From assembly GCF_044647545.1 (NCBI RefSeq), contig NZ_CP172818.1: a stretch of 64,000 bases of DNA, one strand, 5' to 3'. The notes beneath the pieces were generated by a model, which saw only the letters and a list, made by a program, of their open reading frames with translations, did not search any database and was not told the DNA's origin. This DNA comes from Escherichia coli. GTDB taxonomy: Bacteria; Pseudomonadota; Gammaproteobacteria; Enterobacterales; Enterobacteriaceae. This document shows, in pieces, positions 55,621 to 61,585 of this stretch; position 1 is the stretch's first letter, and each line of letters opens with the position of its first letter. A program made the position numbers and the translations under genes.

Positions 55621-56547
55621 CTACAGCGCCCGCCAGCACCGGATCTCACGTCCGTCCTCCCTTATTGTTAATGATTGCCGGACTTTACACCCGTGGGTTG
55701 CCAGAGGGCAACGTTCACGGAAAAAACAGCCTTGTGGCAACGTGCGGTTTCCTGGTAGATCCGTTTTACGTAATGCCCATTCTTCCTCCAGCGGTTTATC
55801 AATGGCGGGGAGGGAATCCAGCAATAATCGGGTGTATGGATGTGCCGGAGCTGTCAGCACCTGTTGCGCGTCTCCTAGTTCCACAATCTGTCCGAGATAC
55901 ATCACCGCCACCCGATCGCTCATATGACGTATCACCGAGACATTGTGTGAAATCAGCACATAAGTCAGCCCGCGATTTTCCTGTAGCGTTACCAGTAAAT
56001 TGAGGATCTGCGCCTGCACGGAGATATCCAGCGCCGAGGTTGGTTCATCAAGCACAATCACGTCAGGCTGCGAAGAGAGTGCTCTGGCAATGGCGATACG
56101 TTGCCGCTGCCCGCCTGAGAACGCATGGGGCAAGCGGTCGAGATACTCCGGACGAATACCCACCTGCACAGCCAGCTCCTCTGCCAACGCTCGCCGCTGT
56201 TGTTCACTACTACGCTTAGCAATCCAGAGCGGTTCCGTGATGATGCGCCACACCGGTAAGCGCGGATTAAGCGAAGAGAGCGGGTCCTGAAACACCATCT
56301 GCATAATGCGTTGTGATCCTGAACGGATGTACTGCCCGTGGCTCGGTTGCAGCATACCCATTAAAAGCTGTGCGAGGGTGCTTTTGCCGCAACCTGACTC
56401 ACCGACGATCCCTAAGGTTTCACCACGACGGATCTGTAAATCAATACCATTGATGGCATGAACATGTTCCGTAGTTTTACCAAGCCAGTTTTTTCGGGCC
56501 GGGAAATTGATATGGACGTCGCGTAACGTTAATAACGTGTCAGACAC
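55621..56547 (-). CDS. ddpF: Dipeptide ABC transporter ATP-binding protein DdpF
   Basis: Track ORF 55621..56601 (GTG-extended); GTG start preceded by AGGAGG gives 308 aa; Walker A GESGCGKST, signature FSGGQRQRIAIARAL. Confidence 0.9.
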   Translation of the reverse strand: MSDTLLTLRDVHINFPARKNWLGKTTEHVHAINGIDLQIRRGETLGIVGESGCGKSTLAQLLMGMLQPSHGQYIRSGSQRIMQMVFQDPLSSLNPRLPVWRIITEPLWIAKRSSEQQRRALAEELAVQVGIRPEYLDRLPHAFSGGQRQRIAIARALSSQPDVIVLDEPTSALDISVQAQILNLLVTLQENRGLTYVLISHNVSVIRHMSDRVAVMYLGQIVELGDAQQVLTAPAHPYTRLLLDSLPAIDKPLEEEWALRKTDLPGNRTLPQGCFFRERCPLATHGCKVRQSLTIREDGREIRCWRAL

Positions 56548-57526
56548 TAATGACCTCCTGCTGAGGATACCAACAGGCGCAGCGGTGGTTGTTGTCACCA
56601 CACGCTGTTAGCGCCGGGACGTTTTCACACTGCGCACCTGCCGCATAGCAACGATCGCGAAAAGCGCAGCCGTCAGGCAAATGGGTGAGGTTTGGTACCG
56701 TCCCTGGAATGGCGGGTAATGGCTGGCGCGGTATTCCATGTTCCGGTGCGCATTGCAGCAAACCAATGGTATACGGATGCCGGGGATGATGGATAACGTC
56801 TGCCGTCACGCCGCTTTCAATCACGCTTCCGGCATACATCACGTAAACGCTATCGCACAGTTGCGACACCACGGCCATATCATGGCTGATGAACAGTACC
56901 GCAGTTCCACTGGCGCGGGCTTTATGTTTAAGCAGACGCAGTACCTGCAACTGTACCGTGACGTCCAGCGCCGTAGTCGGTTCGTCGGCAATAATCAATT
57001 GCGGCTCGCAGGAGAATGCCAGCGCAATCATTACCCGCTGGCGCATACCACCTGAAAGCTCAAACGGATAGCGCGACATAACTTCCACGGCATCCGGGAT
57101 TTGCATCTCTTCCAGCAGGGCAATCGCTTTAGCTCTGGCTTCCCGACGACTTATTGGTTGATGATGGCGGATCACGTCCATCATCTGAAGACCTATTCGA
57201 CGTGTCGGATTGAGGGCGGTCATCGGTTCCTGAAAGATCATCGCCACTCGTGCGCCGCGCCACTGACGAAGCTGCTTTTCCCGAGCGTTAAGAACATCTT
57301 CTCCCAGCAGTGAAATATGTCCCCGATGTACGCAATAACTGCCCGTCGGTAGCAGACGCATAATCAACATTGCAGTGACTGATTTACCCGAGCCGGATTC
57401 TCCCACCAGACCGACAATTTCACCGCGGTTGATTTTCAATGACACATTGTTGAGCGCGTGAACGTCGCCGTTAAAACCGGGGAAACTCAAATGCAGTTGT
57501 TGAATGTCCAGAACGGGTTGGGTCAT
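56540..57526 (-). CDS. ddpD: Dipeptide ABC transporter ATP-binding protein DdpD
   Basis: 328 aa; Walker A GESGSGKSVT, signature LSGGMRQRVMIALA. Confidence 0.92.
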   Translation of the reverse strand: MTQPVLDIQQLHLSFPGFNGDVHALNNVSLKINRGEIVGLVGESGSGKSVTAMLIMRLLPTGSYCVHRGHISLLGEDVLNAREKQLRQWRGARVAMIFQEPMTALNPTRRIGLQMMDVIRHHQPISRREARAKAIALLEEMQIPDAVEVMSRYPFELSGGMRQRVMIALAFSCEPQLIIADEPTTALDVTVQLQVLRLLKHKARASGTAVLFISHDMAVVSQLCDSVYVMYAGSVIESGVTADVIHHPRHPYTIGLLQCAPEHGIPRQPLPAIPGTVPNLTHLPDGCAFRDRCYAAGAQCENVPALTACGDNNHRCACWYPQQEVISV

Positions 57527-58419
57527 GACTGCTTTCCTCCTGCTTTCGGGTCAAGCAGATCGCGAATACCATCGCCAAAGAGATTAAACCCGACGGCGGT
57601 AAGCAAAATCGCTGCCCCCGGAAATGCGCAATACCACCATTGATCGAGCACATAGTTGCGACCATTCGCCACCATCGCCCCCCATTCAGCACTCGGTTGT
57701 TGAGCACCAAGGCCAATAAATCCCAACGTGGCGGCCATTAAAATCGCGCTACCGATATCCAGCGATGCCTGCACAATCAGCGGCGGCAGGGAGTTACGTA
57801 AAATATGCCAGTTGATCAGATGCCAACGCGACGCACCAAAGGTTTTCGCCGCCTGAACATAGGTATACTGGCGAACAACTAATGTTTGCCCCCGCGCCAG
57901 GCGCACATAAAAGGGAATTCGCACAATAGCAATCGCCAGCATGGCGTTAAACAAACTCGGCCCGAGAGCGGCTGCCAGTGCCATTGTCAGTACCAGCGAA
58001 GGAATCGACAGCATAATGTCCATGATGCGCATGATAATCGCGTCTGCGCGTCCGCCAAGCACACCGGATAGACACCCGAGTAGCGACCCCATCATACCTG
58101 CAATGGCGACCACCACTAATCCGGCGAGAATTGATTGCTGACTGCCGACCAGTACGCGGCTGAACAGATCGCGTCCCACTTCATCGGTGCCAAACCAGTG
58201 CGCCGCAGAAGGCGGCAAAAGGCGGGCGGTTAAATCAATGGCGTTGGGATCATGCGTCGCCAGCCACGGTGAAAAAATCATCATCAATAGCATTAATACA
58301 ATGATGACTGCGCCGGTCACGGTGAGCGGGCTGCCTTTCAGCATCGATACCAGTTTTGCACCGTTAAATCGCGTTTGTTTTTGTGGGCGTACGGCGGACG
58401 TTTCCTCGCTTAGCATCAT
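57523..58419 (-). CDS. ddpC: Dipeptide ABC transporter permease DdpC
   Basis: 298-aa hydrophobic ORF; 4-nt overlaps on both sides. Confidence 0.92.
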   Translation of the reverse strand: MMLSEETSAVRPQKQTRFNGAKLVSMLKGSPLTVTGAVIIVLMLLMMIFSPWLATHDPNAIDLTARLLPPSAAHWFGTDEVGRDLFSRVLVGSQQSILAGLVVVAIAGMMGSLLGCLSGVLGGRADAIIMRIMDIMLSIPSLVLTMALAAALGPSLFNAMLAIAIVRIPFYVRLARGQTLVVRQYTYVQAAKTFGASRWHLINWHILRNSLPPLIVQASLDIGSAILMAATLGFIGLGAQQPSAEWGAMVANGRNYVLDQWWYCAFPGAAILLTAVGFNLFGDGIRDLLDPKAGGKQS

Positions 58420-60990: not shown

Positions 60991-61003
60991 GACAGTTTCC
61001 TGA

Positions 61004-61585
61004 TTAACTGGCGTGCTGTGTGCCAGGGGATATAAAACAGGTGAATTGATCAGCGAGAAGTGGGTAACTCGCTGCCTGGGGTAATTCGAAGTGCCACCAT
61101 TCGCTCGGGATACCGACAAAGCCACCGCCAGTCATAATCGCATTCAGCAACAGCCGATTGCGCTGAGCAGCTGGCGGGACGGAAGGGTGATAAGCATGGG
61201 AACGTTCGTGCATTTCATCGAACTCTGCACCCATATCCAGTATGTTCCCGTGCTCATCACGAAGCGTCAGGTCGATCGCCGTGCCACGGCTGTGATTAGA
61301 ACCGACCGCCACATCAACAACATATTGCGGGTCTGGGCAGGCTTGCCACAACATCGCCTGTGCTTGTTGTGGGCGATACGCATCGTAAATCACCAGTTGT
61401 AAGCCTGACAGCTGGGCGATACTGATACTTTTCGCCAGCGCGGTAATCGCATCCTTGTGTAACAGACAACGCGCTTGCTGATAAATAGCTTTGCCTGTGA
61501 TGTTATCAGCGCAGGCGTATTTCAATTCGATCTCCAGATCAGGGAAGATCACGGCTAAATCAACCAGTTCGGTGGTATCCGACAT
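61004..61585 (-). CDS. ddpX: D-Ala-D-Ala dipeptidase DdpX (VanX homologue)
   Basis: 193 aa; VanX-type zinc-site context SNHSRGTAIDLTL and acidic/His residues (EWWHFE). Confidence 0.92.
   Translation of the reverse strand: MSDTTELVDLAVIFPDLEIELKYACADNITGKAIYQQARCLLHKDAITALAKSISIAQLSGLQLVIYDAYRPQQAQAMLWQACPDPQYVVDVAVGSNHSRGTAIDLTLRDEHGNILDMGAEFDEMHERSHAYHPSVPPAAQRNRLLLNAIMTGGGFVGIPSEWWHFELPQAASYPLLADQFTCFISPGTQHAS

Follow-up and report, generated by a model that had tools for sequence, protein, structure and literature searches.

The question raised by this locus is why an Escherichia coli chromosome encodes a VanX-type D-Ala-D-Ala dipeptidase directly ahead of a complete set of ABC importer genes, and whether the arrangement serves salvage of the dipeptide in starvation, control of the cell's own precursor pool, or glycopeptide resistance. 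We have addressed it within a 64-kb stretch of E. coli DNA (the window), and the locus is the ordinary, already described ddpXABCDF operon, with nothing new in the present copy. It is very probably a single-transcript operon for the import and cleavage of D-Ala-D-Ala under the control of sigma-54/NtrC and RpoS. The operon, its enzyme, the starvation logic and this dual control have been known since 1998–2000 and were re-confirmed genome-wide in 2014–2021, and the expression tests suggested with the original prediction (stationary phase and nitrogen limitation) are already in the literature. The salvage or starvation reading is itself a published hypothesis of 1998–1999 rather than a new inference, and reportedly originates with Lessard et al. 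(1998) and Lessard and Walsh (1999). As a discovery the locus carries little weight; the value of the analysis lies in corrected details of the gene junctions and in isolating one real gap, direct proof of the DdpA ligand and the DdpABCDF substrate.

Gene order, junctions and distribution

Six intact, co-oriented open reading frames, each with a single terminal stop, occupy the minus strand from 55621 to 61585, and the six ddp genes are real and lie where originally predicted, with ddpX first. The ddpX gene (61004–61585), which carries that name in the RefSeq annotation, encodes a 193-residue product without a signal peptide, predicted to be a cytoplasmic zinc D-Ala-D-Ala dipeptidase, and ddpA (59440–60990) encodes a 516-residue, putatively periplasmic substrate-binding protein of family 5. 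These are followed by two ABC permease genes, ddpB (58416–59438; 340 residues, GTG start) and ddpC (57523–58419; 298 residues), and two ABC ATPase genes, ddpD (56540–57526; 328 residues) and ddpF (55621–56547; 308 residues, GTG start).

The original prediction had the genes overlapping by 4 to 8 nt, which holds for three of the five junctions (4 nt at ddpB/ddpC, 4 nt at ddpC/ddpD, and 8 nt at ddpD/ddpF) but not for the other two, where a 13-nt spacer containing an AGGAA ribosome-binding site separates ddpX from ddpA, and a single nucleotide lies between ddpA and ddpB. The dipeptidase had also been described as fused into the importer operon, a term that applies only loosely, as membership of one operon, there being no fusion at the protein level. 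A literal fusion of the ddpX and ddpA genes is excluded in the window, as ddpX terminates at a TAA codon and the two genes are in different reading frames. A 335-residue read-through product is present in some public assemblies.

The six genes are tightly packed between dosP upstream and osmC downstream, as expected of an operon. The flanking stationary-phase genes osmC, bdm and sra had been placed back to back with ddp, but osmC (55134–55565), on the plus strand, and ddpF are convergent, with 55 nt between the two stops, and bdm and sra share the strand of ddp and are separated from it by osmC. The 55-nt osmC–ddpF spacer (55566–55620) contains a REP-like, GC-rich hairpin with its core at approximately 55580–55609, and folds at -24 kcal/mol (z=-2.6, with two of 200 shuffled sequences folding equally well). 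It is probably a two-way transcript end or a stabiliser, a terminator function being only suggested because no T-run follows the hairpin. At the other end of the locus, just past the dosP stop codon, a hairpin (GCCCGCACTCGCGGGT) followed by a T-run (TTTCCTTT) at 61815–61833 on the minus strand resembles an intrinsic terminator, and would separate the dosCP and ddp transcription units.

The region from 55000 to 62000 has 100% identical counterparts in several complete E. coli chromosomes, with the genes under the same names there, and of 5426 complete E. coli genomes 4270 contain at least 80% of it. The ddp operon is absent, owing to an old deletion, from about 21% of the complete genomes of the species, and is therefore dispensable. 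A recent insertion of ddp into the osmC–dosP gap is excluded, as the ddp-less genomes retain a degenerate piece of ddpF.

Promoter and transcription

A motif search together with identity to a site mapped by ChIP-seq places a sigma-54 (RpoN) promoter with -24/-12 elements (TGGCATGAGATCTGCA) at 61630–61645 on the minus strand, its 3' end (61630) lying 44 nt upstream of the ddpX ATG. No other sequence in the 64-kb window matches TGGCAYN6TGCW exactly, although 1.1 such matches are expected by chance, so that the count is uninformative and it is the position that matters. All 16 bases match the K-12 sigma-54 ChIP-seq site OS16 upstream of ddpX, which is given as 34 nt upstream of that gene (PMC4591121). 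Judged by this match the sigma-54 promoter of ddpX is present here, and its dependence on NtrC and RpoN is taken from the literature: gel shifts have demonstrated binding of a ddpX probe by both the RpoN holoenzyme and NtrC (PMC8743547), and an NtrC ChIP peak at the ddp locus covers the promoter region (PMC4066584). We note three TGCAC motifs (TGCACCAAAACTGCACTACGCTGCACAAA) at 61705–61733 on the minus strand, 60–90 nt upstream of the -24 element, as a candidate NtrC enhancer. A search of the consensus TGCACCN5GGTGCA with up to three mismatches returned 24 matches where 34 were expected, none of them upstream of ddpX; no NtrC site can thus be called from the sequence, and the TGCAC repeats are therefore only a candidate. 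No RpoS-type promoter could be placed in the promoter scan, and an Rfam scan of 54000–64000 (E<=1) returned no RNA family.

The expression data bear on whether the six genes form one transcription unit. Under nitrogen depletion ddpX is induced 104.5-fold and ddpF 2.2-fold, with the rise in ddpF attributed by the authors to RpoN and NtrC (PMC8743547), and in strain EDL933 expression of ddpXA is RpoS-dependent, ddpXA being the only ddp genes in the RpoS table (PMC2907692). The disparity between ddpX and ddpF is not predicted by a simple single-transcript picture. It would be accommodated, as would the restriction of the RpoS table to ddpXA, if ddpX were transcribed separately and ddpABCDF had its own promoter, or if there were attenuation within or after ddpX, and the 13-nt ddpX–ddpA junction is the only one with a real spacer. 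However, 13 nt is too short for a promoter, and the one promoter-like site returned by a sigma-70 scan lies within ddpC, with none ahead of ddpX, in ddpX itself, or at any junction. There is also no convincing terminator between ddpX and ddpA, the terminator-like sites inside the operon being weak matches that are all within coding sequence. With ddpF rising as well in nitrogen depletion, and with polarity or differential mRNA decay able to explain the uneven induction, we regard a split of the locus into two units as unlikely.

DdpX activity and the substrate of DdpABCDF

DdpX is a member of the VanX/DdpX class of D-Ala-D-Ala dipeptidases (MEROPS M15D, Pfam PF01427). It matches Peptidase_M15 over positions 2–198 of the 199-position profile (E=5.9e-79; 264.9 bits with a cut-off of 27), and passes the NCBIfam D-Ala-D-Ala dipeptidase equivalog NF007557 with 331.3 bits against a cut-off of 176. 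Alignment with the VanX structure 1r44 (E=1.6e-20) pairs DdpX R71, H98, D105, E162, and H165 with VanX R71, H116, D123, E181, and H184, and all five catalytic residues are thus retained: the His-Asp-His zinc ligands, the catalytic Glu, and the transition-state Arg. The K-12 enzyme is said to hydrolyse D-Ala-D-Ala with D,D stereoselectivity (Lessard et al., 1998).

Homology to VanX and an intact active site would also be expected if the locus were left over from a glycopeptide (vancomycin) resistance cluster or served as a reservoir of one, with DdpX removing D-Ala-D-Ala in favour of altered precursors. But no D-Ala-D-Lac or D-Ala-D-Ser ligase, VanH, or VanRS is encoded nearby, the neighbours being the ABC genes, dosP/dosC, osmC, bdm, and sra, and control is by sigma-54/NtrC and RpoS. 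The E. coli outer membrane is moreover an intrinsic shield against glycopeptides. We consider a resistance origin effectively refuted, its probability being negligible, and the originally predicted reading of import and cleavage of D-Ala-D-Ala in salvage or starvation fits both the tool results and the literature, as do the gene identities.

The ddpA–F products constitute an importer set of the Dpp/Opp (PepT) type, comprising an SBP_bac_5 protein (DdpA, E=7.7e-101), two BPD_transp_1 permeases (DdpB with BPD_transp_1_N and DdpC with OppC_N), and two ATPases (DdpD and DdpF), each with ABC_tran and oligo_HPY domains. The N-terminus of DdpA (MKRSISFRPTLLAIVLATTMPVAHA/AV), as read from the translation, looks like a Sec signal peptide. 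No structure of DdpA itself has been solved, and its nearest relatives in the structure search bind peptides, haem, or nickel, among them E. coli DppA (1dpe, E=1.6e-44). DdpA falls below the equivalog cut-offs of all of the named NCBIfam binding-protein models (DppA, NikA, GsiB, and OppA), scoring 174.8 bits in the case of DppA where the cut-off is 1005, and is a paralogue of DppA rather than DppA itself. The best sub-threshold matches of both DdpA and DdpB are nickel systems. DdpC, at 620 bits, passes the NCBIfam equivalog NF007376, 'D,D-dipeptide ABC transporter permease', for which the cut-off is 434.

In the model that we favour, exported DdpA would capture a D,D-dipeptide in the periplasm, presumably D-Ala-D-Ala derived from peptidoglycan turnover or debris, and pass it to the DdpBC permease, powered by the DdpD and DdpF ATPases. 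The cytoplasmic zinc enzyme DdpX would then split the dipeptide into two D-alanines, and these could be converted to pyruvate and ammonium via DadA and DadX by standard E. coli metabolism. Transcription proceeds from the sigma-54 promoter upstream of ddpX, activated by NtrC at nitrogen limitation, with RpoS-dependent expression in stationary phase. Gene content, catalytic residues, promoter, and regulation are each established here or in the papers cited, whereas we infer which ligand DdpA binds, where the dipeptide comes from, and what becomes of the D-alanine.

A different division of labour has to be weighed, in which DdpX acts mainly on the cell's own cytoplasmic pool of D-Ala-D-Ala, either to restrain the synthesis of peptidoglycan precursors or to recover nitrogen when growth stops, and the transporter takes another substrate or a wider range of them, for instance other dipeptides, a metal, or a metallophore. 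Induction of ddpX some 50 times that of ddpF is in keeping with this, as is the description of DdpX activity as potentially lethal through hydrolysis of the precursor dipeptide (PMC6403190). So too are the failure of DdpA to match the DppA equivalog and the leaning of DdpA and DdpB towards nickel systems. The specificity of DdpABCDF for D-Ala-D-Ala was still described as 'putative' or 'thought to' in 2011 (PMC3173086), and in the literature searched we found no direct demonstration of D-Ala-D-Ala binding by DdpA or of its transport by DdpABCDF. Against this alternative, the dipeptidase and transporter genes of Citrobacter are joined by the same junctions although their flanks differ, and a comparable cluster has been reported in Burkholderia, a linkage that argues for one pathway; DdpC also matches the 'D,D-dipeptide' equivalog, although the name of that model rests on the same inference. 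We judge this alternative improbable, and its stricter form, that DdpABCDF is not a dedicated D-Ala-D-Ala importer but takes up another ligand, and that DdpX is a nitrogen-starvation brake on cell-wall synthesis operating chiefly through the internal pool, slightly more improbable still.

Comparison with related systems

The closest counterpart is the ddpXABCDF operon of E. coli K-12 (b1488–b1483; formerly vanX/yddO-S), which has the same genes, order, strand, and dosP/osmC neighbours. K-12-type genomes share approximately 97% DNA identity with the present locus, and the few percent of nucleotide divergence amount only to allelic differences. The sigma-54 promoter core is identical, with G replacing A at the position immediately 5' of the motif.

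In Citrobacter (loci L005 and L006) DdpX is 78% identical, and the six-gene order and the overlaps of 4, 4, and 8 nt are the same, but the surroundings differ. Upstream, 14 nt separate ddpX from the end of an RpiR-type HTH_6 gene, and an exact sigma-54-like motif is situated in front of that gene rather than directly before ddpX; downstream there is a LysR and CoA-transferase cluster and not osmC. A cluster of dipeptidase, binding protein, and permease genes has been reported in one paper for Burkholderia pseudomallei. This co-inheritance of dipeptidase and transporter supports the view that the ddp module is one functional unit.

The E. coli dipeptide permease DppABCDF shares with DdpABCDF the five-component architecture, the Pfam families, and the oligo_HPY tails, and the two binding proteins, DdpA and DppA, are clearly homologous. 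However, DdpB, DdpD, and DdpF score under the Dpp equivalog cut-offs, and Dpp has no linked dipeptidase gene. The VanX of the enterococcal vanA cluster (Tn1546) belongs to the same M15 fold family as DdpX, with common zinc ligands, catalytic Glu, and Arg and, according to the literature, the same D-Ala-D-Ala dipeptidase chemistry, although the two proteins are distant and VanX has extra inserts of about 20 residues. VanX adjoins vanH, vanA, and vanRS and serves resistance, whereas DdpX adjoins an ABC importer under starvation control. PcgL is another enterobacterial VanX-type dipeptidase that plays no part in resistance, and reportedly is periplasmic and encoded outside any ABC-transporter operon (Hilbert et al., 1999). 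It is regulated by PhoP, whereas DdpX is under sigma-54/NtrC regulation and has no signal peptide.

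Organization and expression of the ddp operon

The six genes of the ddp operon are encoded on the minus strand in the order ddpX (61004-61585), ddpA (59440-60990), ddpB (58416-59438), ddpC (57523-58419), ddpD (56540-57526) and ddpF (55621-56547), as defined by the ORF list and by the RefSeq annotation of a chromosome with 100% identity across window 55000-62000, and all six translate without internal stops. The original prediction described overlaps of 4 to 8 nt, and these are present at three of the five junctions (4 nt of the ATGA type at ddpB-ddpC, 4 nt at ddpC-ddpD, and 8 nt at ddpD-ddpF), but the sequence reads as a 1-nt gap between ddpA and ddpB and a 13-nt gap between ddpX and ddpA, with an AGGAA ribosome-binding site 5' of the ddpA ATG. 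The ddpX-ddpA junction emphasized in its title is therefore not among the overlapping ones, and there is no protein-level fusion. We note that a 335-residue gene call in public assemblies (P0004, representing 96 member sequences) has ddpX running on into ddpA through a frameshift close to the ddpX stop (...SCFISPAHSTSVDQETVMKRSISF..., matching window about 60990-61030); either some assemblies carry a real DdpX-DdpA fusion ORF or the call stems from a sequencing error, and such read-through is absent from ddpX and ddpA of the window.

A sigma-54 -24/-12 pattern, TGGCATGAGATCTGCA, is located at 61630-61645. No other site in the window matches the pattern exactly; with 1.1 matches expected the count is not above chance, and the weight lies in its position and sequence; the 16 bases are identical to a K-12 sigma-54 ChIP-seq site 34 nt upstream of ddpX (PMC4591121). 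An NtrC ChIP-seq peak is reported at the ddpX promoter locus (PMC4066584), and a ddpX probe is bound by both NtrC and RpoN holoenzyme (Shimada et al. 2021, PMC8743547). Neither an NtrC site nor an RpoS promoter could be placed by sequence searches of the window. The expression profiles that would bear on a starvation role are already published: nitrogen depletion induces ddpX 104.5-fold and ddpF only 2.2-fold by RT-qPCR (Shimada et al. 2021, PMC8743547), and the RpoS-dependent set of EDL933 includes ddpXA (PMC2907692). The difference in induction represents strong polarity inside a tightly packed operon, and a search within it found no convincing terminator.

Flanking genes and presence across E. 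coli

The placement near osmC, bdm and sra is as predicted, but the genes are not back to back: osmC (55134-55565, plus strand) and ddpF are convergent, with 55 nt between them, and bdm and sra lie on the far side of osmC on the same strand as ddp. A REP-like hairpin forms in this 55-nt spacer, with a folding energy of -24 kcal/mol (z=-2.6). At the other flank, a hairpin followed by a T-run (61815-61833) lies 3' of the dosP stop. Genomic fragments with ddpX (61004-61585) conferred phage N4 resistance in a Dub-seq screen, which its authors note may stem from the adjacent dosP (pdeO; 61843-64000), a c-di-GMP phosphodiesterase gene on the same fragments (bioRxiv 10.1101/2020.02.15.951020).

Presence of ddp is polymorphic in E. 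coli, with ddpX found in 4281 of 5426 complete genomes and missing from 21%, consistent with a published figure of 82% (PMC11226097). Strain 131 is one of the genomes without ddp; in these, 190 bp separate osmC from dosP, and a filler of 66 bp takes the place of window 55610-61763 (region 2107-2174 of comparison locus L002). About 62 nt of this filler are homologous to ddpF (window about 56050-56112) at about 80% identity, with an alignment score of 62 versus a maximum of 32 among 200 shuffles, and in view of this ddpF remnant the absence is an old deletion rather than an ancestral empty site. The left edge of the deletion coincides with the REP-like hairpin.

Window 51000 to 64000 matches E. 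coli FDAARGOS_497 at every base. Elsewhere the window departs from that otherwise identical chromosome at three places outside ddp (2052-3492, 26491-30254 and 44306-44613), which involve an IS200/IS605 (tnpA/insQ-TnpB) element near tehB-ydcL, an Rhs/ISAs1 (vgrG, ydcC/ydcD) region, and a leucine-rich-repeat protein gene region, all mobile-element or hypervariable spots. The downstream ddp flank also varies within E. coli. In strain EC596 (locus L003, 5079-8509) ddpF is adjoined not by osmC but by genes for a LysR regulator, CoA-transferase A/B, thiolase, 3-hydroxyacyl-CoA dehydrogenase and GntP, the same neighbors as in Citrobacter (loci L005 and L006, 15057-18588); in EC596, ddpXABCD, dosP and part of dosC have been lost to an IS1 element.

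A proposed D-Ala-D-Ala import and cleavage pathway

DdpX matches the entire Pfam Peptidase_M15 profile (E=5.9e-79), and its sole solved relative is enterococcal VanX (1r44, E=1.6e-20). In the 1r44 alignment the active site is intact, with R71, H98, D105, E162 and H165 corresponding to VanX R71, H116, D123, E181 and H184. The DdpX N-terminus is acidic and has no signal peptide; the export signal is instead on DdpA, whose N-terminus is a typical Sec signal (MKRSISFRPTLLAIVLATTMPVAHA/AV). Pfam places DdpA among the family-5 binding proteins and DdpB and DdpC among the permeases; DdpD and DdpF are assigned as ATPases, both carrying the oligo_HPY tail of the peptide/nickel ABC family. At 620 bits, DdpC clears the cut-off of 434 for a dedicated 'D,D-dipeptide ABC transporter permease' equivalog model. 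DdpA falls far under the cut-offs of the DppA, NikA, GsiB, OppA and SapA models, and below threshold both DdpA and DdpB score best against nickel systems. Because none of the solved structures is that of DdpA itself, its ligand is assigned from gene context.

These features suggest that periplasmic DdpA would capture D-Ala-D-Ala, that DdpBCDF would import it, and that DdpX would split it in the cytoplasm. The resulting D-Ala would then be converted by DadA and DadX to pyruvate and ammonium, a conversion that is established E. coli metabolism. This model is reportedly that of Lessard et al. 1998 and Lessard & Walsh 1999, and the operon is previously characterized at textbook level, with nothing new in this copy. 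Our analysis shows the parts list, the active site, the DdpA-only export signal and the promoter, and the starvation regulation is drawn from the literature.

The predicted role in D-Ala-D-Ala salvage during starvation, rather than vancomycin resistance, is a correct reading of the locus and agrees with our results and with the literature, the transporter ligand being a presumed one. A vancomycin-resistance remnant is excluded, as both gene content and regulation contradict it, and separate transcription units are unlikely with just 13 nt between ddpX and ddpA. A further, less likely alternative to the import model is that DdpX acts mainly on the internal D-Ala-D-Ala pool and the transporter has another specificity. 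The putative status of the transporter substrate and the uneven induction along ddp leave room for it, and the conserved linkage of dipeptidase and transporter genes argues against it.

Related modules in other genera

Beyond Escherichia, the closest homologues come from Citrobacter (77-81% identity), which has all six genes in unchanged order and with identical 4/4/8-nt overlaps. For Burkholderia pseudomallei, a cluster of dipeptidase, binding protein and permease has been described as well (PMC9884982). This linkage, maintained in Citrobacter in a different neighborhood, indicates that the module travels as a unit, which supports a single pathway. The Citrobacter genes have an RpiR-type gene directly upstream and a LysR and CoA-transferase cluster downstream. 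In the 18.6-kb locus L005 the RpiR-type (HTH_6) regulator gene (8120-8986) ends 14 nt 5' of ddpX, and the one exact sigma-54-like motif, TGGCACGCGTCCTGCA (8047-8062), is 58 nt upstream of the regulator gene. The arrangement suggests that Citrobacter ddp may form a unit of seven genes that includes an additional local regulator absent from E. coli.
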